From the IMG/VR virus record IMGVR_UViG_3300037882_000456, positions 7,882 through 71,881 of that record: a stretch of DNA of 64,000 nt. One strand, given 5' to 3'. Numbering within the stretch: position 1 is the stretch's first letter; every line of letters starts with the position of its first letter. Below are positions 28,718 to 43,908 of the stretch, in pieces. Origin of the DNA: a virus. Below the pieces are notes generated by a model, which did not search any database, had not been told where the DNA came from, and saw only the letters and a list, made by a program, of their open reading frames with translations. The translations under genes and the position numbers were made by a program.

Positions 28718-28870
28718 ATGAACAACATCGAGAACGTCATCAGGAACATCGAAGCGGCAGACCGTATCGAGCGCGAGTGCGCCGAACGTGTCTCGTCGAT
28801 CCTCCGTACTGCGGTTGAGGAACTTCAATCGCTACAGGATCGCATCGACGCTGGTGAGTTCAATGTCTGA
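28718..28870 (+). CDS. Small early protein MNNIENV...
   Basis: Leaderless start. Confidence 0.6.
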   Translation: MNNIENVIRNIEAADRIERECAERVSSILRTAVEELQSLQDRIDAGEFNV

Positions 28871-28972
28871 TAAGCCTTGCGCTACCGTACGCGGTATGCT
28901 ACGCTCATCGAAAGGCTACATCGAGTGCCCCTGCTGTGGTGCATGGGTATACACAATCAAAGGAATTGAATC

Positions 28973-29155
28973 ATGCTAGATGCTATTGAGGCCCGCGACC
29001 TGTCCACTGGTGACTACCTCACTGCTGGTGTGGTGACTGACATCACCACTGGCCCTACTGGTCTGCTCATGGTAGAGTGTGCTGCCTACCCTGGTAGTGT
29101 CATCACCAACACTGTCACCCTGTCCCCTGTAGATGTGGTGTACATCACATCCTAG
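28973..29155 (+). CDS. Small early protein
   Basis: AAAGGA RBS; 'A.DL..GD' motif. Confidence 0.55.
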   Translation: MLDAIEARDLSTGDYLTAGVVTDITTGPTGLLMVECAAYPGSVITNTVTLSPVDVVYITS

Positions 29156-29223
29156 GGTATTGACATACCCACCCACCCATGCTACCCTATGGGTACAAGG
29201 TCAAACGAACTAAGGAATACACC

Positions 29224-29385
29224 ATGGTACACACTCTCACCCACACCGCCCAGGCTAGTGCTGCCAATGGGTACATGGATACGCTCTCATGCTCCTGTGG
29301 CTGGTCCTACACCGACCCCACCTTCCCATGGCTGGTGTCCTACGCGCGTCAGCACGCCGCCCGTGGTAACGCAGAGTGGGCCTGA
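29224..29385 (+). CDS. Small CxC...H protein
   Basis: Own TTGACA-N17-TACCCT promoter, AAGGA RBS, 'CSCGW...ARQH'. Confidence 0.55.
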   Translation: MVHTLTHTAQASAANGYMDTLSCSCGWSYTDPTFPWLVSYARQHAARGNAEWA

Positions 29386-29608
29386 TATGCGCCTCACCCG
29401 TAGGGCATATGTGCTCATCTACGGTACTGCCCTCATGGTGGGCATGTGGTTCCCATGGGAGAGCATGCCCTGGTATGGGCTAGACCTTAGGTAACAATAT
29501 CGTTACCTAACCATCGGCGTGTCGCCTTGACATACCGGCCCTAGCGGGCAAGACCTTGCCCGAGTGTACACGCGTACACTGTCTTAAGAAGGTCACTCAG
29601 GGTCACCG

Positions 29609-29678
29609 GAGAATCTGTTGCTCTGTATAGGGATACTCACCCTATACCGAGTATCTGTTGCTATATATAGGGATTCTC
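29609..29678. repeat. Two 30-bp units (GAGAATC-core-GATTCTC), 40-bp period
   Basis: 29609-29638 and 29649-29678. Confidence 0.85.
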
Positions 29679-29760
29679 ACCTTCGCATATGGTCACACAG
29701 GGTAGCATCTAGCGTTACACAAACGTTACATAAAATGTCCGGTATATGCCCATTCTAGAG

Positions 29761-29795
29761 TTGATTCTGTCAGACCCCCATGCTATGATCATTCC
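29761..29795 (+). promoter_or_regulatory. PafBC-type promoter, leaderless
   Basis: TGTCAG-N10-TATGAT-N6-ATG; also TTGATT-N17. Confidence 0.7.
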
Positions 29796-30065
29796 ATGAT
29801 AGAGATTAGCAAGCAAGCAAGCACCCTAGCGGTGGCCCTCCCCTCATCGTGCGAGATCATGGTGAAGGGCGTTCCTACCCTAGTCCGTATCCACAACGCA
29901 AAGCGCGTTGGTCAGATTTGGGCCTTTGGTATGGACCCCGCCGTGGAAACGGTAGCCATTGTGGACGGCGTTCACTATGGAAAGATCGTCGGGAAGGTCG
30001 GCCCCATCGCGCGGTTCGATTACCTTGACGTTGTGGAAATGCTCATTCCTGAGGGGGTGATTTGA
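29796..30065 (+). CDS. Early hypothetical protein
   Basis: Leaderless start. Confidence 0.6.
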   Translation: MIEISKQASTLAVALPSSCEIMVKGVPTLVRIHNAKRVGQIWAFGMDPAVETVAIVDGVHYGKIVGKVGPIARFDYLDVVEMLIPEGVI

Positions 30066-30247
30066 TAATGGCAAAGAATATCGCATTCGAATGCGGTGAA
30101 TGCAATTCCGGCGTCGTCCTTTGGGACGGTTGGAAAGAATCCATCTTTGATGAGTCGGAAATCGACGAATTCGAAGAAATTGTTTCTGAATTCGGAATTC
30201 CGATGGATATCGGAATGTGTTCACCGTGTGACCTTAGGTACAACTAA
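30062..30247 (+). CDS. Acidic Zn-ribbon-like protein
   Basis: CGEC...CSPC, Glu/Asp-rich. Confidence 0.55.
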   Translation: MIMAKNIAFECGECNSGVVLWDGWKESIFDESEIDEFEEIVSEFGIPMDIGMCSPCDLRYN

Positions 30248-30357
30248 GGTTTACCAAATCGTTACCTGAATGTCCTTGACATCTCAGGGCGAGCGGGCAA
30301 GATCTTACCCGCGCGGGCGCGCGTGTCAAGTCTTACGAGTGTCACAGAAAGTCACGG

Positions 30358-30427
30358 GACTTTCCCCTTATATACCAACAGATTCTCGCCTCGTGCCGAG
30401 AATCCCCTTATATAGCAACAGATTCTC
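30358..30427. repeat. Two 30-bp units, core inverted relative to 29609-29678
   Basis: 30358-30387 and 30398-30427. Confidence 0.85.
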
Positions 30428-30516
30428 GCCATCACTTTCGGTCACTCTCAGTGAGAAATCCCGTTACACAACCGTTACATTAGATGTCCGTTTTGCACCC
30501 CTAAAACGGCCTCGAC

Positions 30517-30544
30517 TGTCAGACCCCTATGGTACGCTTACACT
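30517..30544 (+). promoter_or_regulatory. PafBC-type promoter, leaderless
   Basis: TGTCAG-N10-TACGCT-N6-ATG; no consensus -35. Confidence 0.7.
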
Positions 30545-30748
30545 ATGAAAGAGAAGGGAGAAAGCATGATGATCAACAAGACTTACGCGATTGGCGCATG
30601 GTCGGCACCTTGCACCGTGTCCTATGGACACCCTGTAAATGTCACCCGCTATGAGCGCGTGCGCGTCGGTATCAAGAATGATACCTACGTTGCCACTTGT
30701 GAATGCGGCGCTACTCAGCGTCGGTTCTCATACGCAAAGCGTAAGTGA
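30545..30748 (+). CDS. Early hypothetical protein
   Basis: Leaderless ATG, or second ATG at 30566 with GGGAG RBS. Confidence 0.55.
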   Translation: MKEKGESMMINKTYAIGAWSAPCTVSYGHPVNVTRYERVRVGIKNDTYVATCECGATQRRFSYAKRK

Positions 30749-30843
30749 ATTCAGCCGACTAGGGCGGGATATCCCCTAGCCACAATAGGACCGGTGCCTA
30801 TTCAAATCCACCGGCAGCAAATCTAAGCAGTAAGGAAAGTGAA

Positions 30844-31062
30844 ATGGCTCGTTCAGTAAAGCAAGTGCCGGTAAAGTCCCTCAATTCGTGGGATCGAATT
30901 CAGATTGACGGTTTCGGTCGTCAGACTTTCACCATCATTAGCATTCGTGAGGATGCCGCTAATCAAATGCGATTCTTCCGAATTGCAGGATACAATGAGG
31001 GCGCGTTGCCGTCGCCCGTGGGAATTGCTTATGGTTCAATGGTTCGGAAGGTGAATTCATAA
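30844..31062 (+). CDS. Early hypothetical protein
   Basis: AAGGA RBS. Confidence 0.55.
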   Translation: MARSVKQVPVKSLNSWDRIQIDGFGRQTFTIISIREDAANQMRFFRIAGYNEGALPSPVGIAYGSMVRKVNS

Positions 31063-31352
31063 TGGCTCGCACCACGCCTTGCAGCGATGCAAAGAAAAGC
31101 CTTCGCAATATTGCTACCGCTGCGGTGGAATGCAATTGCTGCGGAATGTGGGTCAAGGAAAGGCGCACTAACGCTCACCGTGAATTGCAATTGTTCGCGG
31201 TGAATGAAGATACTAGAAAGGCGGTGCGTCTCTAATGGGATACATCGAAGTACAAAATGATCAGGGTGAATTCGTTCCGTTCGAATTCATCGACGCTAGC
31301 GTTCGCATTGATATCGAATGGGCGCTAATGAATATTGAGAAAGGAGAATGAA

Positions 31353-31538
31353 ATGGAATTCATCATGGTAGATGGAAAGCCTGCGGATATTGCTAAGTCA
31401 TATTCGCGCTTTGACACCTATTCGCCATTCCGTTACCGCGTATTGCGTAATGGTCGGCTAATCGGTAATGGCGTTACTAGGGAATTGGCAATTGCCGATA
31501 CCAATAAGCGACTAACCCAAATGGGTTATGCAAAGTAA
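31353..31538 (+). CDS. Early hypothetical protein
   Basis: AAGGAG RBS, start MEFIM. Confidence 0.5.
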   Translation: MEFIMVDGKPADIAKSYSRFDTYSPFRYRVLRNGRLIGNGVTRELAIADTNKRLTQMGYAK

Positions 31539-31558
31539 TGCAATTGTTACACACAGGG

Positions 31559-31579
31559 TTATCCACACCCTGTGGATAA
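31559..31579. promoter_or_regulatory. Inverted pair of perfect DnaA boxes
   Basis: TTATCCACA-ccc-TGTGGATAA. Confidence 0.7.
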
Positions 31580-31682
31580 CCGGGCAGGGTCTTGCCCGCT
31601 GTTACCAAAACGTTATTTAAGATGGCTTGACAACCTCACGGGGATCTGGTAGGGTGGTGCTAACACCAACCAAGGAGTGACC

Positions 31683-31883
31683 ATGTTCTACGTTTTCGCT
31701 GAGTTCGACGGTGACTTTGGCCGTAACCGCATCTCGCGTGGCTTTGCCACCGCCGAGGAGCGCGCAGCGTTCGCGTCCACGCTCGCCCCGGCCCCTGGTG
31801 AGGGCTGGTCGGACTACGAGGAGTGGGAGGCCCCTCAGAGTGAGTGGCCCCATACCCCCATCGGCTTCCCTCGGGGCTGGTGA
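31683..31883 (+). CDS. Early hypothetical protein
   Basis: Own TTGACA promoter, AAGGAG RBS. Confidence 0.6.
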   Translation: MFYVFAEFDGDFGRNRISRGFATAEERAAFASTLAPAPGEGWSDYEEWEAPQSEWPHTPIGFPRGW

Positions 31884-32012
31884 CGGGCAAGATCTTGCCC
31901 GCGCAGCGGGAAATGTCAATTTAAGAAGATCTGAAATACTCACGGGAAACGCTTGACAACCCTTGCCCATGCTGGTAGGCTGGCGGTACGCCAACCAGAG
32001 AGGAACCACCAC

Positions 32013-32210
32013 ATGCCCCCCTTCGACCCCGACTTCGACGCTGACAACCCGTACATCACCGACATTCCCGCGCGCTTCGTGTCCCCCGAGGACGAGGACG
32101 CTGACTTCGAGGACGCCTACGGCGTGTTCGCTGAGGCCACCTACGACCCCGATGGCGACTGGGGTGGCGAGGACGCTGGCATGGAGTTCGGCCTCTTCGG
32201 AGACTGCTGA
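32013..32210 (+). CDS. Highly acidic 65-aa protein (DNA-mimic candidate)
   Basis: About 20 D/E versus 1 R; own TTGACA-N17-TAGGCT promoter; GAGG RBS. Confidence 0.65.
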   Translation: MPPFDPDFDADNPYITDIPARFVSPEDEDADFEDAYGVFAEATYDPDGDWGGEDAGMEFGLFGDC

Positions 32211-32304
32211 CCCCAACGCTACCCCTTCGGGGGTAGCGCGGGCATGATCTTGCCCGCCTGCGGGCGGTTGTCAAGTTAAGATCATATGCTGAGACTCACG
32301 GGAA

Positions 32305-32332
32305 TGTCAGACCCATGTGCTAGGATGTCTCT
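32305..32332 (+). promoter_or_regulatory. PafBC-type promoter, leaderless
   Basis: TGTCAG-N10-TAGGAT-N6-ATG. Confidence 0.7.
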
Positions 32333-32524
32333 ATGAGACGAACCAAGCAAGCAGGAAATGATCACGGTATGCGTGCGATCTTCGACCGTGATGATCACAC
32401 GATCACCCTGACTACACACGGTAGCGGTGATGACCTGTTCATGTGGACCGAGCCGCAGGAACCGACTAACAAGCAACTGAAAAACATTCTGGAAAGTCAC
32501 CCCTGTACGGCGTGTCGCGTGTAG
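32333..32524 (+). CDS. Early hypothetical protein
   Basis: 63 aa, ends HPCTAC. Confidence 0.55.
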   Translation: MRRTKQAGNDHGMRAIFDRDDHTITLTTHGSGDDLFMWTEPQEPTNKQLKNILESHPCTACRV

Positions 32525-32527
32525 GAC

Positions 32528-32549
32528 TGTCGGACCCCTGTGCTACAAT
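32528..32549 (+). promoter_or_regulatory. PafBC-type promoter upstream of whiB-like gene
   Basis: TGTCGG-N10-TACAAT. Confidence 0.7.
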
Positions 32550-32578
32550 GGCATCATCAACCAAACGAAAGGCACGAA

Positions 32579-32800
32579 ATGCTCACTCCATGCCAGTCTC
32601 TCGCCGCGAACGAGGGTCACGACGTTGTGGACAAGTTGCTGTTCACGACCAAGCGCCGCGCTCTGATCGCCATTGAGTCACTCTGTGACCGATGCCCCGA
32701 TGAGGCCAAGTCGGACTGTGGCAAGCGTGCTCAGTCCATCGTCACGCCTGCCGGTGTGATCCCTGCCGAAGGCGTGTTCGGCGGTGTCTATTATGCGTGA
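32579..32800 (+). CDS. whiB: WhiB-like Fe-S transcription factor
   Basis: C...CDRC-x7-C...GVFGG; GAAAGG RBS. Confidence 0.7.
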   Translation: MLTPCQSLAANEGHDVVDKLLFTTKRRALIAIESLCDRCPDEAKSDCGKRAQSIVTPAGVIPAEGVFGGVYYA

Positions 32801-33014
32801 GATCGAAATGGCGCTAGACACCATCGAGCATATTGCTGGGCAAATGCGGATCGCTGCCCCGATGTTCGAGCAGTTTCCGTTCCTCAACTCCATCAACGTG
32901 ATGCGCGAAGAGGAATGTCTCGGTCAGATTGAGCGATGCGATGACTTCGTTGAGGGTTGCCGCTTCGTTCTAAACGCTTACTTCTTCGAGGTGCCCAATG
33001 AGTTCAGGATTTGA
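32793..33014 (+). CDS. Hypothetical protein
   Basis: Overlaps whiB-like gene. Confidence 0.5.
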   Translation: MREIEMALDTIEHIAGQMRIAAPMFEQFPFLNSINVMREEECLGQIERCDDFVEGCRFVLNAYFFEVPNEFRI

Positions 33015-33207
33015 GAACTACGATGACGAAACGCTCCGTATCATCGAGGCTAATCTCTTGCGTGGATTGGATCGCGTTGCAGATTCTATTGCCAACGGCA
33101 CGTTCACGCTGGTAGGCGAAAAGGGGTCAGCACCTCCCTGTGAGGGAGGGCAAATTACCCTCATCCTTCTCAGAGGCGTTCAAGCAGAACTTGACTCGCG
33201 CCTCTGA
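32998..33207 (+). CDS. Hypothetical protein
   Basis: GAGGTG RBS. Confidence 0.55.
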   Translation: MSSGFENYDDETLRIIEANLLRGLDRVADSIANGTFTLVGEKGSAPPCEGGQITLILLRGVQAELDSRL

Positions 33208-33292
33208 GTCGGGCAAGTTCTGCCCGCTGATCGTTATCTTCCTGTTATGACGAGGGCTTGACTTCACGGGAAATCCTTGATAGTATCGCGTC

Positions 33293-33658
33293 ATGCGAGT
33301 TTACAGGATTCAACATGAGGCCCGAGGTCATGGACCGTACATCATCCCGTTCTTTGAGGGTGACTACGATGACGAGAATGACAATGCGTACGACGATCTC
33401 ACTTCGCTGGCATACTGCCTGATCCGTGATCACCAAGACGATGACCACAAGGCACCTGACGTTATCCCTTCGCGCAAGGTGTGCGGGTTCGATTCTATGG
33501 CAGCACTTGAAACTTGGTTCGAGGGTTATCTCTCGGAGTTGTTCGAGGCTGGCTATGTTGTCATGGAGTTCGAGGGCGTGGACGTTCGCGTGCATGGTAA
33601 CGGTCAGGTAACGTTCGATAAAGAGTTGAGTATTCGCTTGACTTCCGCTGCGATCTAG
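33293..33658 (+). CDS. Hypothetical protein ('YRI.H...GPY...CGF' family)
   Basis: Leaderless TTGACT-N17-TAGTAT-N6-ATG. Confidence 0.65.
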   Translation: MRVYRIQHEARGHGPYIIPFFEGDYDDENDNAYDDLTSLAYCLIRDHQDDDHKAPDVIPSRKVCGFDSMAALETWFEGYLSELFEAGYVVMEFEGVDVRVHGNGQVTFDKELSIRLTSAAI

Positions 33659-34140
33659 GATACAATCATCCCATGAAGAAAAACAAGCGTCCCCAGAGTC
33701 CGAAGTCCAACGCACGCGTTCAGCGTGTCCAAGAGTTGAGGCAGGGTAGCACCACCAGCCCTCACCGCTCTGCGGCAGACTATCGCCGCAAGCCGAAGCA
33801 CGTTGGGCGTGGTTGGGATGAGTGATCGCAAGATGTCCCACGTTGATGTGCTCACCCGTGGAATGGAGCAGGGCCTCTCGTATGAGGATGCCGAGGCACT
33901 GGCCTTTCACCTTTGCCCCGAGTACCGCATGTGCTCCACCGCCCGCTATGTGAATGCGATCAACCGCATCCTCTCATAAACCTGTGTTGGCGCTTAGGGT
34001 CCGTCCCCATCATCCACGATGGGGGTAGCGGGCAAGATCTTGCCCGCGCCAGCGGGCTTGTCAAGGTCTTTATGATAACGATTTGATATCACGGAAGTTA
34101 CCTAACCGTTACCTAATCCCCTGCCGTATGGCTTGCGCTA

Positions 34141-34168
34141 TGTCGGTCCCCTATGCTAGAATCATCCC
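34141..34168 (+). promoter_or_regulatory. PafBC-type promoter, leaderless
   Basis: TGTCGG-N10-TAGAAT-N6-ATG. Confidence 0.7.
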
Positions 34169-34924
34169 ATGATGACAACGACGAACACCCTAGGCCTGCG
34201 CCGCTCCACCGACCGTAAGACCACCCCCTCCGCTAACAAGGCTGGCAAGGTTGCCAATATCGCTAACGCCTTCGGAATGCTCTCAGGGCGCGATTTCTCG
34301 TGTCCTGGTCAGACTGCCGCGTGCGAGGCTGTTTGCTATGCGGGGAAACTCGAACGCATCTTCGGCGGCTTTCGTGCCGTAATGACCGATAACTGGAATG
34401 CGCTTAGTAATGCGTCGTATTCCGATATGGTCGCGTCCCTTGATGCTATTGTCAAGGATTTCATTGTGGACGCGGATAAGCGGGAATGCGATAAGGTATT
34501 CCGCATTCACCACGATGGGGATTTCTTTAGCCGTGATTACGCGAGCGCGTGGGCTAATGTCGTGAAGCGTAATCCGTCCGTTCATTTCTGGGCCTACACG
34601 CGCTCATTCATTCCTGGCTGTAATGTCGTGGATATCCTTGCGGATATTCCCAATCTCACGCTTTACCTTTCGGTGGACGTCAATAACCTGGAATGGGCTA
34701 AGGTTATTACTGCGGAATACAATAGCGTCAAGGTCGCAACGCTTACCGATACCGCCGATGAGGGAACGGATATGATGCTTTCATTCCGTGAGCGTAAGGG
34801 TGGCGCGTGCCCCGAGGTTATGGGCCGTATCGAACTCATTACACCCGAGGGTGGCGCGTGCGTTACTTGTGCGCTTTGTGTATTCGGCAAGGCCGATATC
34901 CGTTTCGCTGCGAAGGGAAAGTAA
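34169..34924 (+). CDS. Gp88-like protein (Cys-cluster, radical-SAM-like fold)
   Basis: 'CPG...C...CYA', 'FRIH.DGDF', 'FWAYTR', 'C..C.LC'. Confidence 0.75.
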   Translation: MMTTTNTLGLRRSTDRKTTPSANKAGKVANIANAFGMLSGRDFSCPGQTAACEAVCYAGKLERIFGGFRAVMTDNWNALSNASYSDMVASLDAIVKDFIVDADKRECDKVFRIHHDGDFFSRDYASAWANVVKRNPSVHFWAYTRSFIPGCNVVDILADIPNLTLYLSVDVNNLEWAKVITAEYNSVKVATLTDTADEGTDMMLSFRERKGGACPEVMGRIELITPEGGACVTCALCVFGKADIRFAAKGK

Positions 34925-34926
34925 TC

Positions 34927-35157
34927 ATGGAACTCGGAACTATTGTTATGGCGACCGTTAGCCTAATGATTGCCGGAATGCTGACGGGATTGTTTATCTG
35001 GCTAACCGATGGTTGGTTTAGTCCTGGTATTGCCGTCGTGCTAATGGGGATTAGCGTCGTGTTTCTATTCACCGTATTCGGGTGGATTCTGCTAATCGGT
35101 TTGGGCGTTATCTGCGCCGCATTTGCCGGTATTCTATTCACAGATTCCGAGGGGTGA
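34927..35157 (+). CDS. Membrane protein
   Basis: Start MELGT; very hydrophobic. Confidence 0.6.
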   Translation: MELGTIVMATVSLMIAGMLTGLFIWLTDGWFSPGIAVVLMGISVVFLFTVFGWILLIGLGVICAAFAGILFTDSEG

Positions 35158-35933
35158 TAAAGGCTGCCCACGCCGAAAGGCGCGGGCAGGTTTTGCCCGC
35201 TGGGCAAAGCCTTGTCAAGTTACGAAGATCCTGAAAACTCACGGGAATTCCACTTGACATCCTAGCAGTTTGCTGGTAAGATCATGGCATGAACCTGATG
35301 AGGAAGCAAACGGCCAGAGCAGCGTCAAAGAATTCCCGTTTCACGGGCTGTGAGTGCTGCAATCCGTTGCCGTCCGTAAAGGTTCTTCGCAAGCGTGAGG
35401 AAAGAAAATGGAGAAAGGACTGGACAACCAGCCCATAGTCTGCTAGACTAGCATCTCCACCAACCGAAAGGACAGCATCATGCTGGGTTACACCGAGGCC
35501 ACCATTGAGCGTAAGGCCACCGCTCGCAACCTGACCGTCGATGAGTACAAGGCGGTTCTCATCACCAAGCGCAAGACTCGCGCGGAGCGTTCGCGCAAGG
35601 CTCGTGCAGAGCGCAAGGCGGCAGCCAATGCCTAAGCCCATCCGTGTCAGGGTCACCGACTCCAATGGTAAGGCGTACCTCTACATTGGTACGCTCTCCG
35701 ACTGGCGTGGTGAGAATCCTCACTTTGATCCGGTCGTGTATGGGTCAGGCGTATTCGTCCTGAACTGCGATCAGATCGTGAGCGTTGAGGTTCTTTACCC
35801 TGGACACCTTGACAACTCGTAACTAGTGTGCTACACTAGTTAGATAACTTCACAGAGTTTACGGTTGGTCTTAGTTCGTACTTGCTCGCCAACCGTCAAG
35901 CGATGGGGAAGATAAGATAAGCCCATCATTCTA

Positions 35934-36005
35934 GGTCGATTAGTGTAGAGGTTCGCACAGGTCCCTGTCAAGGATCTAGTACGGGATCGTTCCCCGTATC
36001 GACCG
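35934..36005 (+). tRNA. tRNA-Asp(GTC)
   Basis: Cloverleaf, loop CTGTCAA, atypical T-loop ATCGTTC. Confidence 0.8.
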
Positions 36006-36016
36006 CGTAAGTTCGA

Positions 36017-36098
36017 GCGTCGTGGCTCATGGAGAGCAGGGAGGTTGTAACCCTTCCGTCGTTAGACAAAGGTGGTTCGATTCCATCACGGCGCACCA
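36017..36098 (+). tRNA. tRNA-Tyr(GTA)
   Basis: Loop TTGTAAC, long variable arm, CCA. Confidence 0.85.
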
Positions 36099-36099
36099 C

Positions 36100-36174
36100 A
36101 CCGCCATCGTATAATGGACAATACGGGAGACTTTCAATCTTCTAATCGGGGTTCAATTCCCCGTGGCGGTACCA
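36100..36174 (+). tRNA. tRNA-Glu(TTC)
   Basis: Loop CTTTCAA, CCA. Confidence 0.88.
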
Positions 36175-36175
36175 T

Positions 36176-36249
36176 GGGAGTATGGTGTAGTGGTAACACA
36201 GAAGATTCCAAACCTTCTGCCTGAGGTTCGATTCCTTGTACTCCCGCCA
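36176..36249 (+). tRNA. tRNA-Trp(CCA)
   Basis: Loop TTCCAAA, G73, CCA. Confidence 0.85.
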
Positions 36250-36400
36250 CCGCCCTATCGGGCAAGGGTTTGCCCGCGCGAAGCGCGGTGTCAAGCCCTT
36301 TAAGAACTTCAAACAAACTTCACCGGATCCTGAGAATCGCTTGACTTCGAGGCCACATGCTGCTAGACTAGCATCACACCAACAAGGAAGAAGGATTCAA

Positions 36401-37375
36401 ATGCCTGCTCTTATCGATTCATTCGCCTCGCGTGCTCAGGTCGCGTGGCATGGCCTCGGCACCGTGTTCGATGCCGATGAGAACGTGAACACCTCCAAGA
36501 TGCTCGAACTGTCCGGTCTGGATTGGACCGTTGACCTCGTGCCGCTCGTCACCAACGACGCAACCAAGATGGACGCTGGCGCGTTCGCCTCTGTCCGTAC
36601 CAACAAGGACGGCGCTCAGGCTGTCCTCGGTGTCGTGGGTGAGCGTTACACCGTGGTTCAGAACTCGGACGCTCTCGCGTTCGCTGACAACATCCTCGAT
36701 GGTGGTGGCCGATGGGAAACTGCCGGTGGCCTAAAGGGTGGCGCTGTCGTGTTCGGCTCCATGGCTGTCCTCGATGACATTGTGCTCGACCCGCAGGGTG
36801 CGGCTGACAAGATCAAGACGTACCTGCTCATCAGCACTTCTCACGATGGTTCGTCTGCCATTCAGGTGTCCTCGACTCCTGTTCGCGTGGTTTGCTCGAA
36901 CACTCTCAACATGGCCCTAAAGGGTACCAAGAACTCCGTCAAGTTCCGCCACACGGCGAGCATTGAGGGCAAGGTTCTTCACGCTCGCCAGTCGCTCGGC
37001 ATGGCTTCGACGTACTTCGATGCGTTCGAGGTTGAGGCTCAGGCGCTGTTCGCTCAGGCTGTCACGAACGACAAGTTCGACAAGATCGTGAAAGCGATCT
37101 ACCCTGAGCCCAACCGCGTCGATGCTGCCAAGGTCGCCGTGACCAAGTGGGACAACCGCCGTGAGCGTCTGTTTGGCCTGTGGAATGGCCCGACCAACGC
37201 CAACATCAGCGGCACCGCTTGGGCTGCGCTCAACGCTGTGACCGAGGAAAACCAGTGGTACCGTCAGGTTCGCGGTGGCAACACTGAGAACGGTCTGGCT
37301 GCTGGTGCTGGCTTCGATGACGCTACCAACGCGTTCCGCTCGAAGGCCCTGAGCGTCGTCAAGGCGTTCGCCTAG
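36401..37375 (+). CDS. DUF932 / TIGR03299-like protein
   Basis: 'AWHGLG', 'GLDW.V', 'LG.VG.RY..VQN', 'SHDGS', 'TPVRVVC.NTL', 'RHT', 'GTAW...NAV.E'. Confidence 0.88.
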   Translation: MPALIDSFASRAQVAWHGLGTVFDADENVNTSKMLELSGLDWTVDLVPLVTNDATKMDAGAFASVRTNKDGAQAVLGVVGERYTVVQNSDALAFADNILDGGGRWETAGGLKGGAVVFGSMAVLDDIVLDPQGAADKIKTYLLISTSHDGSSAIQVSSTPVRVVCSNTLNMALKGTKNSVKFRHTASIEGKVLHARQSLGMASTYFDAFEVEAQALFAQAVTNDKFDKIVKAIYPEPNRVDAAKVAVTKWDNRRERLFGLWNGPTNANISGTAWAALNAVTEENQWYRQVRGGNTENGLAAGAGFDDATNAFRSKALSVVKAFA

Positions 37376-37545
37376 TCTCCGGTGGGGGCACCTGGGAAGA
37401 TCCCCTCGTGTCCCCACTGGTTTCACCTTGACAGCCCGCCTGCGGCGGGCAGTCTTTGCCCGATGTCAAACTCTTCTAATTACGAACCCCTTGACATTTC
37501 ACGGGAGTTCTGGTAGGCTGTGCCCAACAAACAAGGGAGCGAATC

Positions 37546-37911
37546 ATGGACAAGCGAGCATATCTCGTATCGGCTGGGCTAGCACAAGGAACTCGTGGCA
37601 GGTTTTCTGCTGAGGCTGAGGCTGCTTGGACTGCTCATCTGATCGAGCAGGGTAATGATGAGATCACGCCTAGTGACTCAGAGGTTCCTGACCTCCCTCG
37701 TGATGGATTCCATCTTGCCACGCTCCCTCCTGTTTATAACATTGTAAGAGAGCAAGAGAGCGCGTACACGGTGGATGAGCAGGGTCATCTTATTGGTCAC
37801 AGCGCATGTGGTGACTGTAAGCGACAGATCCGCAACTGTGAGTGTGCTGGTGGGCCTTGGGGCTTGTCATACATCGCTCCCCGTCAGAAGGCCTACCTAG
37901 TGTCCAACTAG
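37546..37911 (+). CDS. Hypothetical protein with 'RGRFS' and Cys motifs
   Basis: Own promoter; 'GLAQGTRGRFS'; C..C......C.C. Confidence 0.6.
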   Translation: MDKRAYLVSAGLAQGTRGRFSAEAEAAWTAHLIEQGNDEITPSDSEVPDLPRDGFHLATLPPVYNIVREQESAYTVDEQGHLIGHSACGDCKRQIRNCECAGGPWGLSYIAPRQKAYLVSN

Positions 37912-38053
37912 GGCGGGCAACATCTGCCCGCCAGGGCCAGATGTCAAGCCATTACGAACCTTTACGAAGATCGCGGGAATCCACCTGAATCACTTGACAT
38001 ACACCCCGCCTGCTGGTAGACTTACCTCACACCAACAGAAAGGAACCACCCGC

Positions 38054-40066
38054 ATGAAGCCCACCGCCTCATCCGTACTGAACACCGGCAATCTCGGTGG
38101 ACCCAGTAAGACCATGACCATCATGCGTGACGCTATGGCGCACATTATGAGCGTTCTGACGAACCTCTACTCCGATGCGAAGTTGGCCGTGCTGCGCGAG
38201 TACGCGACGAACGCGCTTGACGCTCACCGCGAGGCTGGCGTCACCCGTCCCATCACAATCGTTCTGCCCTCTGACTACAAGCCTACCCTTGTGATTGAGG
38301 ATTACGGTGTGGGTATGTCCACCGATGAAATCCTCAACCTCTACTCGTCCTATGGCGCAAGCACGAAGCGCGACACGAATGAGCAGACTGGTATGCTCGG
38401 TCTAGGTTCTAAGTCTGCCCTTGCTTACTCGTCTCAGTTCACCGTGCGCTCGCGCAAGGGTGGCGTGGAAACCTCTGCCCTGATCTACCTGAATGACCGT
38501 GGCGAGGGTGAAATCAAGATCGTGGACACGAAGGCCACGAATGAGACTGGCACGCGCATCGAAATCCCTGTGACTCCGAAGGACATTGGCGCGTTCTCTA
38601 AGGCTGCTCGCGGTCTGTTCGTGTTCTGGAATCCCGCTGATGTTGAGGTCAAGGGAACCGACCAGTCTTTCGGTCGCACCGAGAAGTCGTGGGAGTGGGT
38701 CACCGATAGCATCGCTCTCGCCCCGCGTGGTCTGAACAACGATCCGGCAGTTTATCGCTACCGCTACGATCCTGCCGATGTGTACGTTGTCATGGGTGGC
38801 GTGCCGTACAAGGTGGACAAGGATCGCCTGTCGGACGATGCGAAGAAGGCTTACGCTGGCCTCCCGCTGGAACACCACGACGTTGTGTTCATCGCTCCCA
38901 TCGGTTCGGTCCAGTTCGTTCCGTCTCGTGAGGCTCTGTATTACACGAACGTCACGAACGCCACGCTGGAAACCCTGTTCACGGATTACGTCACCAGCAT
39001 CGGTGCGTACATCACGAATCAGGTCGCGGCCTCTAAGGATCGCCCCGAGGCTCTGCGAACGTATGACAAGTTCCGCAAGTTGGTTCCGACTGGTGCGCCT
39101 GTGACGTATCAGGGTGCCGTGGTCCCGTCAAGCGTTCCCTGTGCCTGTTTCTCTGCCTCCACCGCGAAGCGAACGGCTGGCAGTTCTCACAAGGCTCTGC
39201 CGCTGCTGGAAAATGTCGAAGCGATGGACCTCGTGATCTATGGCGCAACGTCAAGTCAGTTGGGCGACAAGGGTGCGTATGCTCTGCGCGTCTCTGCCGC
39301 AGGCTACCTGACTGGTGCCTACGCTCTGTCGGATCGCTACTACGGAGCAAATGCTGGCAAGACTAAGAGCATCCTCATTATTGAGGGCGACCTGCCTGAC
39401 GGCTGGGACTGGTACAATGTCAAGTCTGTCAAGGCATCTGACCTGCGTGCGAAGGGCAGCCGTGGTTCTGGCAGCACTTCCCAGGCTAAGACTGAGTACC
39501 AGGAACGTACCTGGGAAAAGGTCGGCGCATCGTGGGGATCGGTCGTCAAGGTTGATCCTGCCGATGACAAGGTTGTGTATGTCGATGCTCAGGGTCGGTA
39601 CGCGATCAACGGCAGCGACATTCCCCAGGGCTGGACTGTGGTTATGGTCCCTGGAAATCAGCACGGTCGGTTCGCTCGTGAGTTCCCTCTTGCTCGCACT
39701 CCTGAGCAGGTTCGCAAGGAAGCCATGCTCAACAACAAGGTTGTGCTGGACGAAGAATCTTCGACCTACCTTGCCTCTGCTCCGTTCTACCGTCCCGTCA
39801 ATCAGACTAGCAAACTGCTTGACCCTGACCTTGTGACTGTGCTAGACTGGAAGCAAGGAAAGAAGCCCGCGCTCGTCGTCAAGATGGAGAAGGTCAATGC
39901 GGATTACGCTTGGCTCAAACTCCGTGCCGATGTTGAGCAGGCAAAGACTCCGACTCTGGATCGTGTGACCAAGAAGTACGGTTCATACCGTGGCCTTGAT
40001 AGCAACGTCCTGATCGACACCCTCAACGCGATCTACACCTACAAGTACCTGGGAGGTACACCTTGA
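38054..40066 (+). CDS. rIIA: RIIA-like protein (GHKL/HSP90-type ATPase)
   Basis: 'LYSD...VLREY..NA.DAH', 'D.G.G', 'YGASTK', 'GLGSKS', 'PSRE.L.Y'. Confidence 0.85.
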   Translation: MKPTASSVLNTGNLGGPSKTMTIMRDAMAHIMSVLTNLYSDAKLAVLREYATNALDAHREAGVTRPITIVLPSDYKPTLVIEDYGVGMSTDEILNLYSSYGASTKRDTNEQTGMLGLGSKSALAYSSQFTVRSRKGGVETSALIYLNDRGEGEIKIVDTKATNETGTRIEIPVTPKDIGAFSKAARGLFVFWNPADVEVKGTDQSFGRTEKSWEWVTDSIALAPRGLNNDPAVYRYRYDPADVYVVMGGVPYKVDKDRLSDDAKKAYAGLPLEHHDVVFIAPIGSVQFVPSREALYYTNVTNATLETLFTDYVTSIGAYITNQVAASKDRPEALRTYDKFRKLVPTGAPVTYQGAVVPSSVPCACFSASTAKRTAGSSHKALPLLENVEAMDLVIYGATSSQLGDKGAYALRVSAAGYLTGAYALSDRYYGANAGKTKSILIIEGDLPDGWDWYNVKSVKASDLRAKGSRGSGSTSQAKTEYQERTWEKVGASWGSVVKVDPADDKVVYVDAQGRYAINGSDIPQGWTVVMVPGNQHGRFAREFPLARTPEQVRKEAMLNNKVVLDEESSTYLASAPFYRPVNQTSKLLDPDLVTVLDWKQGKKPALVVKMEKVNADYAWLKLRADVEQAKTPTLDRVTKKYGSYRGLDSNVLIDTLNAIYTYKYLGGTP

Positions 40067-40911
40067 CCGCCATTCAGTTCCAGATGACGCAGGCCGCAGA
40101 AGGTCAGCGAACCGTCACCTTCGTCGGTGAGGATGGACAGTTTCATTCCATCAACTCCGATACCGTGGGCTTCGATGAGACGCTAAATGCCATTCTCATC
40201 AACGACCTGCCTACTGCCACCGCCGCTGCTGTGCCGCTTGGCACTATCGTGGCTCGCCTCGCCGCTGTCTCGTCTGACTTCGGCACCGATGGTGACGTTG
40301 TGACTCGTCATGGCGTCCCGCTGGCTACTCGCCTGTCGAAGATGTTGCTGGGCTATGCTCGCAACGGCTCCGATGCTCTCACGGCTCTGTGCCTGTTCAT
40401 CGCTCGCCTTGACAACAACCCGTCGAAGCGTTCGGTGGAGAACCTGTACGACTGGATCGAGGCTAACGGTCTGACGATCAACGCCGAGGGCCACATCGTT
40501 GCCTACAAGGGCGTGACCAACGATAGCAAGTCGGTTCACTCTGGCGTGGCTTTCGTGAATGGCACGAAGGTCGAAGGTCAAATCCCGAACGCGGTCGGTG
40601 ACGTTATCACGATGCCTCGCAATCAGGTTCAGGATGACCCGTCCATCGGCTGTCACCAGGGGCTTCACGTTGGCTCGCACGGCTACGCTTCGTCCTTCGG
40701 GCGTCGCCTCCTGACGGTCACCATTGACCCGCAGGATGTTGTGTCGGTCCCGACTGACTGTGGCGCTGCGAAGATGCGCGTCTGCCGCTACACCGTTCGT
40801 GCGATCAACGAGGCTAAGGCTGAGTACGCGCACTACACCGTGGTCGATGACTACGACGAGTACGGTAGCGATGACTACTGCGACTGTCCTAACTGCGACG
40901 GCGATCACTGA
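40063..40911 (+). CDS. rIIB: RIIB-like protein
   Basis: 'NPS...V..LY', 'G...AYK.V', 'N.VG....M.R..V.DD....C..GLHVG...YA', 'DVVSVP.D....KMR.C.Y'. Confidence 0.88.
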   Translation: MTAIQFQMTQAAEGQRTVTFVGEDGQFHSINSDTVGFDETLNAILINDLPTATAAAVPLGTIVARLAAVSSDFGTDGDVVTRHGVPLATRLSKMLLGYARNGSDALTALCLFIARLDNNPSKRSVENLYDWIEANGLTINAEGHIVAYKGVTNDSKSVHSGVAFVNGTKVEGQIPNAVGDVITMPRNQVQDDPSIGCHQGLHVGSHGYASSFGRRLLTVTIDPQDVVSVPTDCGAAKMRVCRYTVRAINEAKAEYAHYTVVDDYDEYGSDDYCDCPNCDGDH

Positions 40912-41134
40912 GGGTGGTGATGGGGTAGGGAGTGGTGTCCCTGCCCCGCCTGCTCCCCTCCCCTTCGGGGGAGGGAGAGCGGGCAAGATCTTGCCCGCCA
41001 AAGGCGGGCTGTCAAGGTCTTTACGATGATCAAAGAAATTCACGGGAATTGCTCTAAAACACTTGACGTTATCCCGATATTCTGATACACTTCTGCCATA
41101 ACGAGAAACCACCACCTCTCCCGCAGGAGGAACC

Positions 41135-41479
41135 ATGCTTCACACCTACACCGTGCGCCGCACCTCAGGCTGCCAGGGCCTTGTCGATGTGACCGTTCGA
41201 GTCGCCAATGGTGACATTAAGGTTCTACAGAATGTGGTTGCAGTCTACCACAAGAATGATGGAACCATCACTGTTCAGACAAACCCAGGTTCGTATGATT
41301 ACTGGGACCGGAGCACGAACGTTATTCGCAATATCCGTATCGTGCTCGATGTATCCACTGCCGCTAGCCTCGTGCTCGGTGGCTGGGTTCCGAACAAGGA
41401 TCAGAAGTTGGCTCGTGCGTCTGCGCTTGCCCTCGAAATCCTTGCAGATTCCGCTGCACATCGTGGAGTTGAGGCCTAA
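41135..41479 (+). CDS. Hypothetical protein
   Basis: Own promoter, AGGAGG RBS. Confidence 0.65.
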   Translation: MLHTYTVRRTSGCQGLVDVTVRVANGDIKVLQNVVAVYHKNDGTITVQTNPGSYDYWDRSTNVIRNIRIVLDVSTAASLVLGGWVPNKDQKLARASALALEILADSAAHRGVEA

Positions 41480-41545
41480 AACACCTTGACATATCGATGA
41501 AATTCCTGTACACTAGTGCTACACCCCAACAAGAGGAGACATACC

Positions 41546-41692
41546 ATGGCTACCAAGACCATCACCCGCAAGACCCGCGTCAAGGTCAACTCGAAGATCG
41601 AGGCCTGGGACACCCGCTTCGGTGCTTCCGCCCGCGTCGTGACGCGAACGACTGACGGCAAGTTCGTCACGAACGTTTCGCTCGGCAAGTAA
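41546..41692 (+). CDS. 48-aa basic protein (not in ORF track)
   Basis: Own promoter, GAGGAG RBS, MATKTITRKTRVKV... Confidence 0.6.
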   Translation: MATKTITRKTRVKVNSKIEAWDTRFGASARVVTRTTDGKFVTNVSLGK

Positions 41693-41737
41693 CACCAGAT
41701 CTACCAACACACCCGCATTCACCCTTAGGAGAAAACC

Positions 41738-41950
41738 ATGATCAGTTCCACTGAAATCCGTACCTGGGCCAACAGCAACGATGTCCCGGTGGGCTCGCGT
41801 GGCCGTCTCGGTCCCGTCGTGAAGGGTGCCTACTTCAAGGCCAACCCCGCCATCGCGCGTGAGGTTGCTAGCGAGGCTGGCATCGAGGTCGGTCATCGGG
41901 GACGCATCAAGGACGAGACAATCGCCCTGATCGCAAACGTCCTCCCGTAA
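41738..41950 (+). CDS. lsr2: Lsr2-like DNA-binding protein (tandem RGR AT-hooks)
   Basis: 'IRTWA..N..PV..RGRL' and 'GIEV..RGRI'. Confidence 0.8.
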   Translation: MISSTEIRTWANSNDVPVGSRGRLGPVVKGAYFKANPAIAREVASEAGIEVGHRGRIKDETIALIANVLP

Positions 41951-42024
41951 GGGATTAACGCCACGGGGTGGGTACCTTGACAGGTGCCCACCCTATGTGG
42001 TACACTTTCCTTCGGAGGCCAACC

Positions 42025-42273
42025 ATGACAGAAATCCACGCAAACAGCAAGAAGGTGGCAGACAAGATCGTGAAGGCGCTAGACGTTCTCTCGTTCTCAC
42101 CCGCTATCGCAGCACAGGTTCTCGCTTCCGCACCAGGGCCGGTACAGCACAGGCTTTGGCTCACAGTGAAGGCTTTGATCCATCTGTGGGCCATTGACGC
42201 AAAGCACCGGACCTACGATCCAGAGTATCAGCAAATCCACGATTGGGCAGAAAGGGCAGACGACAATGGCTAA
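42025..42273 (+). CDS. Hypothetical protein
   Basis: GGAGG RBS, own promoter. Confidence 0.6.
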   Translation: MTEIHANSKKVADKIVKALDVLSFSPAIAAQVLASAPGPVQHRLWLTVKALIHLWAIDAKHRTYDPEYQQIHDWAERADDNG

Positions 42274-42511
42274 GGTCACACCAGCAGAGGCCGATGAGTA
42301 CCTGCGCGACGTTGGCACAGTCTACGTCCCGCAGATGGACGATGCCGAGTGGGTCAAGGTTATCGGGTTCCTACTGGCATCCGGTTTCATCGCTGACGCT
42401 GACTACTCCACCGACGTAGGCCAGACAATGCTCCAAATCGTGGGCGATGTGAACGCTGATTATCAGGCGTGGAAGGCTGACAACTACACAGAATCAGGAG
42501 AAGATGCCTAA
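42266..42511 (+). CDS. Acidic hypothetical protein
   Basis: Start MAKVTP. Confidence 0.55.
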   Translation: MAKVTPAEADEYLRDVGTVYVPQMDDAEWVKVIGFLLASGFIADADYSTDVGQTMLQIVGDVNADYQAWKADNYTESGEDA

Positions 42512-42595
42512 GGGCTCTTCAAGTTCGTTGCAGGAGGGTCTTGACAGGCCCGCCTGCGGCGGGCAAGATCCTACCCGAGATGTCAAGTGAAAATC

Positions 42596-42680
42596 CCTTT
42601 ACGATCCGACTTAGAAAAGTCACGGGAACTTTTCATAGATCTACCTTTACGATCCGACTTCAAAATCTCACGGGAGTTTG
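42596..42680. repeat. Tandem direct repeat CCTTTACGATCCGACTT...TCACGGGA
   Basis: Two copies about 47 bp apart. Confidence 0.8.
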
Positions 42681-43143
42681 TATGAAACCTCTAAGTGAAT
42701 GGCCTACTAGATCTAAGATTACCTTCACTACAGTGTATTTAATCAGTTTGTTAAACGCGGTGTTCTCAGGACACGGTGTACTATCCTTCTTATCTCCTAT
42801 TGCTATGTTACTAATAGTCTCTATAGGTCCAATGATATCTTCTTTGTATGATTCCTACAAAGAGGCAAGAGGTAATGATTTAGAGCGTGCAATAAGGAGA
42901 TATCATGGTGGCACCGGCCCCAGATGACGCTAAAATGCCCTAATGGAGGGCTAGTGGAGGGAAACATCTAAAAAAGAGGCCATAAATGGTGAGTTTTCCC
43001 TGTTAACATCGGGAAAAAACAGCCAAAGTGGAGGGAATGCCCTAGAAGCAGTCAGTTTCTAGGGTTATTTCATGCCCAGAATCTTCTGAAAATGCCTTGA
43101 CAGGCGGGTATATATATGCTACCAAAACACATCTACTCTTGGG

Positions 43144-43163
43144 TTATCCACAGTTTATCCACA
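43144..43163. promoter_or_regulatory. Two direct perfect DnaA boxes in AT-rich convergent junction
   Basis: TTATCCACA at 43144 and 43155. Confidence 0.65.
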
Positions 43164-43332
43164 GGTTTTCATTCTTGTTAGGTTTTCTTTGTAGGAAACC
43201 TACAAATTTCCTCTGATTTACTGTCTGAATCCTACAATATCTGCCATATATAGTCGCATAGACGACCTATTACAAGATCTGCTGATGCTACGCATAACCT
43301 GATCATATCAACGGTTCATGCATAGGTTACTC

Positions 43333-43908
43333 TTACTTAGAAGGTCTAGACCATTCTGAGAAGAGGGCTACACTCACCGCCGCTAAAGATACGAACGTGA
43401 TGTTCACAATAGGGATACCCTCACCTACAATGTTAAGGTAGAACAACTGGTATAGATATACCATGAACAAGAACAACGCCGCCCTGCGCTTTCTTGCACG
43501 CCTCTTGGTGAACAGAGCATAGAATGAATACGTTGCTACTCCTAGACCAATAAGGATTAGTACACTGAGTAATGGAGTAGGGACTACAGACTCGATTGCC
43601 ACCGCCCCGGCGATTGTCCTGATAAGGAAGTAGGACGACACGAGAAACATAGTCGTGGTGATGATGCCCTGGATGTGCCAGAAAGCATTCTCGGTTCTGA
43701 ATGTATTAGAGGCACGACGATACCAAGTCTCGTCGGCCTTAGCCTTCTTATACAACTGCTCTAAAATCTCCTGGCCTGAATCTTCCATCTCGTGGACCAG
43801 CAGAGAATCCAGCAGATTTTCCTCAACGGAAACGACAGCAGTTTTTTCCAGATTCGGCTTTGTCAGCAGATATCCGGTAGCAGTTTTTCTGATACCAATT
43901 GTTGGCAC
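43333..43908 (-). CDS. Multi-pass membrane protein
   Basis: Four TM-like segments. Confidence 0.65.
   Translation of the reverse strand: MPTIGIRKTATGYLLTKPNLEKTAVVSVEENLLDSLLVHEMEDSGQEILEQLYKKAKADETWYRRASNTFRTENAFWHIQGIITTTMFLVSSYFLIRTIAGAVAIESVVPTPLLSVLILIGLGVATYSFYALFTKRRARKRRAALFLFMVYLYQLFYLNIVGEGIPIVNITFVSLAAVSVALFSEWSRPSK

Follow-up and report, generated by a model that had tools for sequence, protein, structure and literature searches.

The stretch of DNA analysed here, referred to as the window, comprises 64,000 bases of a single virus contig of 71,881 bases (bases 7882-71881 of IMG/VR record IMGVR_UViG_3300037882_000456), and all coordinates are window positions. Between 29.5 and 42.7 kb, groups of genes running rightward are separated by 13 copies of a composite module, which is built around an 18-bp palindrome, termed O1, and is the subject of this analysis. 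Scans against Pfam and PHROG found a portal, a protease, a tail fibre, a ribonucleotide reductase, RIIA/RIIB-like proteins, a ligase and a NAMPT-like protein among the window proteins, and the genes that separate the modules are mostly ORFans (orphan open reading frames) or have no Pfam matches. Gene direction is leftward from 1 to 22 kb, rightward from 22.5 to 42.9 kb and leftward again from 43.3 kb, and the contig is incomplete, with one gene continuing past its end. A WhiB-like gene together with two Lsr2-like genes, a weak match to a proteasome subunit, promoters of the form TTGACA-N17/18-TAnnnT and further promoters matching the PafBC motif all point to an actinobacterial host.

The palindrome CGGGCA-N5/6-T(G/A)CCCG is present in 13 copies, all within 29545-42577, when a 5-7-nt centre and one arm mismatch are allowed and the entire 71,881-base genome is scanned; no copy lies elsewhere, as an earlier note on this DNA had stated for the region outside 29.5-42.7 kb. 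With the stricter pattern CGGGCA-N6-TGCCCG (at most one mismatch) nine matches were found against 0.16 expected, a number reached in none of 100 shuffles, and the conserved dyad really has an 8-2-8 geometry, CGGGCAAG-NN-CTTGCCCG. An inward-pointing TTGAC(A/T) lies 11-13 nt away from 12 of the 13 copies, only 31581 being without it, and the chance of this is about 0.007 per copy as judged from hexamer frequency in the region. The hexamer is on the left of copies 29545, 30294, 33210, 37446 and 42560 and on the right of 30294, 31884, 32239, 34029, 35183, 36259, 37914 and 40980, so that copy 30294 has it on both sides. The recurrence of TTA[ACT]GA-N13-15-TCACGGG was likewise borne out, with ten occurrences on the plus strand and none on the minus strand (mean of 0.03 in 200 shuffles), and relaxation of the second box to TC[AG]C[GC]G[GA][GA] gives the box pair in all 13 modules, mostly with N13. 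The broken -10 that the same note had described is also real, in that the hexamer following TTGACA-N16/17 is CAAGAT or similar; a -10 hexamer TAnnnT is found 16-18 nt after the -35 in a single copy of the 13, 30294, where TTGACA-N16-TAAGAT forms a consensus promoter on the minus strand.

The modules share one order, from the end of a gene group through O1, a 12-13-nt spacer, TGTCAA(G), TTTA(C/A/T)GA, 13 nt and TCACGGGA(AT) to a promoter. The end of the gene group is usually a variable GC-rich hairpin (several with TTCG or GAAA loops), otherwise a stop codon and once a tRNA, and O1 starts 0-3 nt past the hairpin or stop codon and 10 nt past the tRNA. A promoter follows 12 of the 13 modules, being sigmaA-type in eight and PafBC-type (-26/-10) in four (modules 1, 2, 5 and 7). 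In three compact modules (31581, 33210 and 37446) the -35 hexamer is placed between both boxes and TCACGGGA falls in the promoter spacer, with the N13 spacing kept.

The PafBC motif has been described as tGTCgg-N10-tA-N3-T without a -35, in the accessible part of its report (PMC8635444). Eight matches to it occur in the window against 0.86 in shuffles, six of them on the plus strand at 28690-34162, and by motif match the promoters behind modules 1, 2, 5 and 7 fit PafBC dependence. In five of the six plus-strand promoters of this type an ATG lies exactly 6 nt past the -10 hexamer, suggesting that the mRNAs are probably leaderless. A literature search on PafBC motifs in phages found no link to phage promoters. 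PafBC binding at TGTCAAG itself was ruled out, as no TAnnnT is found 10 nt downstream. The spacings of TTACGA-N13-TCACGGGA do not fit a sigmaB/F-like or extracytoplasmic-function-like promoter or a degenerate CRP site, and it is treated here simply as a bipartite box; only one CRP/FNR-type site (TGTGA-N6-TCACA, at most two mismatches) was found in the modules, overlapping the TTACGA of module 2. A hand estimate of helical phasing between O1 and the predicted transcription starts (72-132 nt) gave weak clustering only and is not relied on.

Among the searches for relatives of the window, no match came from megablast (14 kb, tested on a set of 50,697 phage records), from an exact 18-mer search of IMG/VR or from tblastn with a 767-residue open reading frame, and a DUF932 single-protein search confirmed none of 38 candidates. 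Distant blastn returned short pieces only, from Streptomyces BE-type phages; the only named relatives are distant Yaboi-type Streptomyces phages, with an RIIA-like protein 28-40% identical, and the only near-identical fragments came from assemblies of freshwater metagenomes, where their depth was low. When IMG/VR was scanned by pattern, however, one contig of 102,989 bases (G001) emerged with 12 copies of CGGG(C/T)AAGTACTTGCCCG in a 10.7-kb rightward block. The G001 modules keep the 12-13-nt distance to TGTCAAG, and they keep TTACGA, but have a CRP-like TGTGAC-N-CACA where the window has TCACGGGA. They are near-identical to one another over about 100 nt, upstream hairpin included. Over the 40 kb of G001 searched, apart from one 57-nt stretch, DNA-level alignment to the window was limited to the module (about 50 nt at 86-90%) and the DUF932 gene (64%), and shared proteins are 24-56% identical. 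Four array genes only are common to both phages, encoding a 50-residue protein, GP88, DUF932 and an Lsr2-like protein; each of the last three is flanked by a module on either side in the window and in G001 alike, and GP88 and the 50-residue gene stand in opposite order in the two phages.

A metagenome scan returned at least 118 matches, mostly single chance matches, about nine loci being true relatives that represent six distinct sequences (L240, L318, L261, L335, L275 and L310). L335 reproduces the box set of the window, including the last module with its TACCCG arm and tandem TTTACGATCC/TCACGGGAA units, the same terminal design as module 13. The composite module of the earlier note is thus real and conserved in relatives: arms, TGTCAAG distance and TTACGA all recur, and conservation of the TCACGGGA box holds in L335 but not in G001. 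The full comparison set comprises 44 copies of O1 from eight sources, in which the left arm is CGGGCA in 35 and CGGGTA in nine, the right arm is TGCCCG in 34, TACCCG in five and another sequence in five, and the centre is variable. In cellular genomes, CGGGCAAG-NN-CTTGCCCG gave at least 120 matches, each a single site in an unrelated taxon; none of the 120 listed has TGTCAA at 10-14 nt, and they give no clue to a host regulon.

The junction into which O1 is set is far more widespread than O1. A DUF932 profile search gave 571 confirmed matches, of which 80 related loci from uncultured phages were kept; guanine-plus-cytosine content was 35-47% in the 29 that were checked, and O1 was found in G001 only, apart from a site in L053 that looks like a chance match. 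The junctions of almost every locus show a GC-rich hairpin, a palindrome or DnaA-box pair, TGTCAAG/TTTACGA/TTAAGA/TTACGGGA boxes, often AATGTCCG, and then a promoter. CRP-type palindromes (TGTGA-N6-TCACA, at most one mismatch) number 542 in the 80 loci against 35 in shuffles, with five or more in 50 of the loci, and 251 of them are followed by a PafBC-type motif no more than 150 nt downstream. Two or more DnaA-box 9-mers are present in 72 loci, and three or more PafBC-type motifs in 61 loci on the coding strand, compared with seven on the other strand and none in shuffles. In the examples read, the CRP-type sites and DnaA boxes are situated just past the GC-rich hairpin, and in AT-rich relatives canonical hairpin-plus-T-run terminators precede TGTCAAG directly. 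In relatives without O1, TGTCAAG stands as an independent box, with no minus-strand -10 at promoter distance. The pair TGTCAAG then TTTACGA is therefore family-wide and found in phages that lack the palindrome, so that the TTGACA beside the palindrome does keep a fixed spacing to it but is probably not specific to it. We propose that TGTCAAG, TTACGA and TCACGGGA are older, family-wide upstream promoter elements.

In Streptomyces phage Yaboi (L001, NC_048730), junctions run from a hairpin through CCGCCCCGG and TCAAAAGATCTTGA to a promoter, and nearly every small-gene junction has this arrangement. All 43 copies of CCGCCCCGG are within the two 12.4-kb terminal repeats (record positions 744-12496 and 119562-131168). 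By analogy with Yaboi, the 13-kb block of the window is probably a long terminal repeat that assembly has collapsed into the middle of the contig.

These findings suggest that O1 is a dyad-symmetric operator of a dimeric DNA-binding regulator, placed in a family-wide terminator/promoter junction within a block that is probably a terminal repeat. For the multi-part operator that had been suggested earlier, the composite nature stands, and the operator function is the best-supported reading of O1, with chances that we consider roughly even. Under this proposal each module would mark where one small early transcription unit of an actinobacterial phage gives way to the next, and O1 would act as double-stranded DNA, recognised by a dimeric sequence-specific protein encoded by phage or host. 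A candidate regulator occupying all 13 junctions could exert joint control over the early block, for example the shut-off or timing of host-takeover genes, and O1 would have been added at a fixed distance next to the older TGTCAAG, TTACGA and TCACGGGA boxes. That a protein binds and regulates at O1 is accordingly what we propose, from several lines of comparison. In 25 copies from two phages, none of the seven stem pairs is changed on both sides and three are invariant, so that sequence rather than pairing appears to be conserved; conserved arms around a variable centre form the half-site-plus-spacer pattern of dimeric operators. In the 35 copies with a 6-nt centre, the positions read A (31), G (34), N, N, C (33) and T (30), a dyad that continues to the centre and supports a DNA site, because the innermost G/C pair cannot form around a 2-nt hairpin loop. 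The centre follows the hexamer avoidance of each genome (AGATCT in the window, AGTACT in G001) and hence does not seem to be specifically read. The TACCCG arm, which gives a C-A mismatch in plus-strand RNA, recurs in matching modules (42560 with L335 5614, and 30294 with L310 960). Moreover, all 33 scored flanks place xGTCAA 11-13 nt from O1, whether the spacer is GC-rich and arm-pairing (17 flanks, better than at least 95% of shuffles) or AT-rich and unpaired (five flanks, 0.0 kcal). The CRP-type sites and DnaA boxes at the junctions of relatives lend further support, since these are protein-binding sites and not stable RNA stems.

Several observations nevertheless weigh against an operator. 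The 200 nt preceding at least five good sigmaA-like promoters of the array (33638, 35421, 35809, 41486 and 41977) contain no O1, which follows unit ends and not promoters; as these promoters within units lack the boxes too, the module marks unit boundaries rather than promoters as such. No helix-turn-helix regulator was found by Pfam and PHROG among about 68 open reading frame translations of the incomplete contig, where only a WhiB-like protein, two Lsr2-like proteins and ORFans were met, and a host factor is equally possible as the binder of O1. The centre is 6 nt long in 35 of 44 copies, 5 nt in eight (four of the 13 in the window) and 7 nt in one, and 5-nt centres would be poorly tolerated by a rigid dimer but leave a hairpin unaffected. 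The commonest arm variant, CGGGTA (9 of 44), retains a U-G wobble in plus-strand RNA, and 17 of 33 spacers form an arm hairpin more stable than at least 95% of shuffles, suggesting some selection on nucleic-acid structure. The absence of a compensated double variant (none seen, about one expected) is not significant, and the metagenome loci were picked up by a pattern that demanded one or more copies with exact arms, so that arm conservation among them is biased upward.

Much of this evidence is what would be expected if O1 acted as RNA, forming with the upstream and spacer hairpins the 3' end of early transcripts (a terminator without U-tract, a protecting stem-loop, or a processing or antitermination site recognised by an RNA-binding protein), an explanation that we consider unlikely. 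It would account for O1 always abutting an upstream hairpin or stop codon, for the absence of O1 from within-unit promoters that also lack hairpins, for the tolerance of different centre lengths, for the retained wobble and for spacers that pair with the neighbouring arm through different sequences. Predicted folds range from -20 to -57 kcal/mol, including a long alternative hairpin between the O1 centre and TGTCAAGGTCTT, with stems at every copy, and the hairpin-plus-T-run terminators of AT-rich relatives lie in a similar place. However, no hairpin plus T-run is found at any O1, and none of 19 terminator-like sites at 27000-44000 coincides with one; although the hairpins are GC-rich as in an intrinsic terminator, the O1 stems are followed by GC-rich sequence or TGTCAAG and not by a U-tract. 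The stems are conserved in sequence, with no compensatory pairs and with variable loops, which is the reverse of usual RNA-protein recognition. Further points against an RNA function are the innermost G and C that are conserved yet unable to pair, the C-A mismatches conserved between phages, the constancy of the TGTCAA distance across unpaired AT-rich spacers, and the AT-rich CRP-type sites and DnaA boxes at similar positions in relatives. The promoter-like geometry of TTGACA-N12/13-O1 could instead point to a pseudo-promoter, at which sigmaA holoenzyme would dock through region 4, possibly with the phage WhiB-like protein, without opening at CAAGAT, and so act as a decoy or roadblock insulating the units, or as a weak antisense promoter. 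The flanking hexamers are indeed indistinguishable from the true -35 of the phage (cTTGACA), O1 would span about -17 to +1 after TTGACA and the spacer, its arms read CTTGCCC, which is -35-like, the minus-strand promoter at copy 30294 is complete, and the WhiB-like gene is common to the window and G001. But in G001, with its centre AGTACT, the hexamer is CAAGTA or TAAGTA without the conserved final T, so that the promoter and decoy ideas of the earlier note are weakened; in addition, relatives without O1 have no corresponding minus-strand -10, and antisense starts at eight of the 13 hexamers would be directed into the preceding hairpin, to no evident use. A pseudo-promoter is therefore very unlikely.

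A similarly low probability attaches to the module being a recombination cassette boundary, comparable to the promoter-early stem-loop (PeSL) cassettes, with its conservation arising from homogenisation of copies and from crossover use in early-gene swaps. The ORFans between modules, the four array genes common to G001 (three between modules, with one order swap) and the near-identity of the G001 modules are all in keeping with this, as is a low-depth metagenome contig in which 29678 is linked to 30441 through 12 other letters, a whole unit being skipped. That joint has a depth of 2 in one 151-nt-class contig, though, and homogenisation alone fails to explain identical arms, TGTCAAG and TTACGA between phages whose proteins are 24-56% identical and whose flanks have diverged; cassette shuffling, another earlier suggestion, is compatible with the data without being demonstrated by them. 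Confinement of the array to one 13-kb block, and of the Yaboi motif to terminal repeats, could also reflect a DNA-level function of the repeat itself, such as protection of the entering end, a pause in injection or recognition in concatemer processing. This is extremely unlikely: placement between units and by promoters, and a box order restricted to the coding strand (ten plus, none minus), fit transcription control better, and for the window block the status of terminal repeat comes by analogy. More speculative than the operator as such, and decidedly doubtful, is the idea that the array is a control layer specific to the terminal repeat. A regulator, or sigmaA region 4 with the phage WhiB-like protein, would dock at each early junction on a symmetric element of 54 bp (TTGACA-N12/13-O1-N12/13-TGTCAA) and insulate or switch off the host-takeover block at once. 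Since related lineages have other host factors (CRP, DnaA, PafBC) at comparable junction positions, the junction would then be an exchangeable socket that connects early phage transcription with the physiology of the host.

Comparable arrangements exist in other mobile elements. Bacillus phage SPO1 carries a host-takeover module in its terminal redundancy, with many short early units that have their own promoters and terminators, and both the conserved inverted repeats of phiC31 and the KorB operators of RK2 place one dyad operator at many promoters of a mobile element. These are likenesses at the level of the system only, with no known relation of sequence or protein, and none is known to have the box order of the window. 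Literature searches on the phiC31 repeats and on terminal-repeat motifs of Streptomyces phages found nothing bearing on the window module. The stoperators of Cluster A mycobacteriophages have the consensus GGTGGMTGTCAAG, whose last seven bases, TGTCAAG, are those of the box next to O1. Only this heptamer is shared, as in the window the bases 5' to it vary and the G-rich 5' half is absent, and no repressor-like protein was found among the scanned open reading frames of the window. Stoperators are many-copy intergenic repressor sites which, in the accessible parts of the reports, are asymmetric 13-bp sites of a monomeric immunity repressor distributed genome-wide in temperate phages (PMC9283540, PMC6550527), whereas O1 is a dyad and the related phages are of lytic type. 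The CRP/FNR-type sites and DnaA boxes of related phages occupy a comparable junction place in many copies, and the inner GGGCA-N6-TGCCC of O1 has the 5-6-5 geometry of a CRP site, but its half-site sequence is wholly different and O1 is GC-rich. G001 has O1 and a CRP-like site in one module, suggesting that O1 is an addition and not a simple replacement.

Closest in organisation are the PeSLs of T4-type phages, which, from the parts of the accounts available, are small composite terminator/promoter motifs repeated between small, variable and mostly uncharacterised early genes (PMC2839356, PMC4122927). Like the window module they have been proposed as crossover points for modular shuffling. They differ in sequence, host phylum and promoter types, and their available descriptions mention no 18-bp dyad that stands apart and keeps a constant distance to additional boxes; PeSL insertions and deletions are documented there by close phage pairs, compared with the G001 gene-order swap and one depth-2 joint only for the window. 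The 17-bp repeat TGTTCGGNNNCCGAACA of Cluster O mycobacteriophages, with more than 30 copies per genome (PMC4351075, as described in its accessible part), resembles O1 in being a many-copy actinophage element, often intergenic, with invariant inverted arms and a variable centre. It differs in sequence, in geometry (7-3-7 as opposed to 8-2-8) and in its genome-wide distribution, which includes sites inside genes, and that part of the report does not place it in a fixed composite together with additional boxes and -35-like hexamers. With composite stem-loop cassettes (PMC4122927) and actinophage dyad repeats (PMC4351075) in print, as far as these sources could be seen, the term 'undescribed' used in the earlier note is too strong: the kind of element is already known from PeSLs, the Cluster O repeat and stoperators. 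The motif literature searched contains no description of the specific composite, of its being kept among uncultured phages or of one site taking the place of another from lineage to lineage.

The module represents a compact, strongly conserved regulatory grammar in a large and almost unstudied family of phages of Actinobacteria from fresh water and soil. Should O1 prove to be an operator, about 12 early units would answer to a single protein, for which O1 could serve as bait. What is seen across the family may have broader interest than the palindrome itself: ahead of PafBC-type or sigmaA promoters, the junctions of different lineages carry different palindromes (O1, CRP-type, DnaA). This suggests a way in which early transcription in lytic actinophages is coupled to regulators of the host, and it provides predictions for the annotation of promoters and terminators in metagenomic phage genomes.

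Table. Positions of the 13 O1 modules and of two further PafBC-type promoters in the window, all on the plus strand
Feature	Span	Element upstream of O1	O1	TGTCAA to the right	TTA(C/A/T)GA box	Second box	Promoter	Remark
Module 1	29527-29610	TTGACA 29527-29532	29545-29562, centre AGACCT		TTAAGA 29584-29589	degenerate TCAC-box 29603-29610	PafBC-type 29768-29789	
Module 2	30276-30359	TTGACA 30276-30281	30294-30311, right arm TACCCG	30324-30329	TTACGA 30333-30338	TCACGGGA 30352-30359	PafBC-type 30517-30538	
Module 3	31581-31655	abutting inverted DnaA-box 9-mers (31559, 31571)	31581-31598		TTAAGA 31617-31622	TCACGGGG 31636-31643, within promoter spacer	sigmaA-type 31627-31655	no flanking TTGAC
Module 4	31884-31981	TGA stop codon, directly before O1	31884-31901	31914-31919	TTAAGA 31921-31926	TCACGGGA 31940-31947	sigmaA-type 31953-31981	
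Module 5	32239-32326	TTCG-loop hairpin	32239-32256	32269-32274	TTAAGA 32276-32281	TCACGGGA 32296-32303	PafBC-type 32305-32326	
Module 6	33191-33286	TTGACT 33191-33196	33210-33226, 5-nt centre		TTATGA 33245-33250	TCACGGGA 33264-33271, within promoter spacer	sigmaA-type 33258-33286	
Module 7	34029-34162	hairpin	34029-34046	34059-34064	TTATGA 34070-34075	TCACGGAA 34089-34096	PafBC-type 34141-34162	
Module 8	35183-35282	GAAA-loop hairpin	35183-35199, 5-nt centre GGTTT	35213-35218	TTACGA 35220-35225	TCACGGGA 35239-35246	sigmaA-type 35254-35282	
Module 9	36259-36369	tRNA-Trp (end 36249)	36259-36276	36289-36294	TTAAGA 36300-36305	TCACCGGA 36320-36327	sigmaA-type 36341-36369	before DUF932 gene
Module 10	37428-37519	TTGACA 37428-37433	37446-37462, 5-nt centre	37464-37469	TTACGA 37480-37485	TCACGGGA 37499-37506, within promoter spacer	sigmaA-type 37491-37519	Lsr2-like gene downstream
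Module 11	37914-38022	hairpin	37914-37930, 5-nt centre	37942-37947	TTACGA 37952-37957 and 37962-37967	TCGCGGGA 37971-37978	sigmaA-type 37994-38022	before RIIA/RIIB-like genes
Module 12	40980-41091	strong TTCG-loop hairpin	40980-40997	41010-41015	TTACGA 41021-41026	TCACGGGA 41040-41047	sigmaA-type 41063-41091	
Module 13 (last)	42541-42675	TTGACA 42541-42546	42560-42577, right arm TACCCG	42581-42586	tandem TTACGA-N15-TCACGGGA, 42599-42627 and 42647-42675	in tandem units		no recognisable promoter after
PafBC-type promoter	28690-28711							
PafBC-type promoter	32528-32549							

Among the genes of the window, the WhiB-like protein is encoded at 45780-46121 (-) and its G001 counterpart is 44% identical, the proteasome-subunit-like protein with a weak match lies at 23458-24048 (+), a macro-domain protein at 55849-56307 (-) and the NAMPT-like gene, truncated by the contig end, at 63077-64000 (-). 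The 50-residue protein (33673-33825, +) is strongly basic, has no family match and shows 49% identity to a 51-residue G001 protein encoded directly after a G001 module. The window has 27 tRNA genes, at 35934-36249 and 47558-62940; four tRNAs form a unit of their own inside the array, bounded by promoter 35809 and O1 copy 36259.

Palindromes of 6 bp are strongly avoided in the genome of the window (G000), in which CGATCG, AGCGCT, TGGCCA, TCATGA, TGCGCA, GGCGCC, CTGCAG and AGTACT do not occur, with 9-23 of each expected (9.4 for AGTACT). G001 avoids other 6-bp palindromes, for example AGATCT (2 against 16.4 expected). A GAGAATCTGTTGCTATATA-like repeat, about 19-30 nt long, follows the two leftmost modules in four copies, of which two are direct and the other two inverted, at 29609-29667 (+) and 30369-30427 (-). 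Direct repeats of the form GTTAC-N6-GTTAC lie near 29714, 30463, 31601 and 34097, with ATGTCCG following at 29735 and 30490, and correspond together with it to the TTACGA/AATGTCCG boxes of AT-rich relatives. DnaA-box 9-mers (TTATCCACA) are present at 31559-31579 and 43144-43163, and also at 20044 and 46846. The inverted pair at 31559-31579 is itself the hairpin that abuts O1 copy 31581, and the tandem pair at 43144-43163 is inside an AT-rich, 400-bp non-coding gap immediately to the right of the array; DnaA-box pairs are also found near the junction palindromes of relatives.

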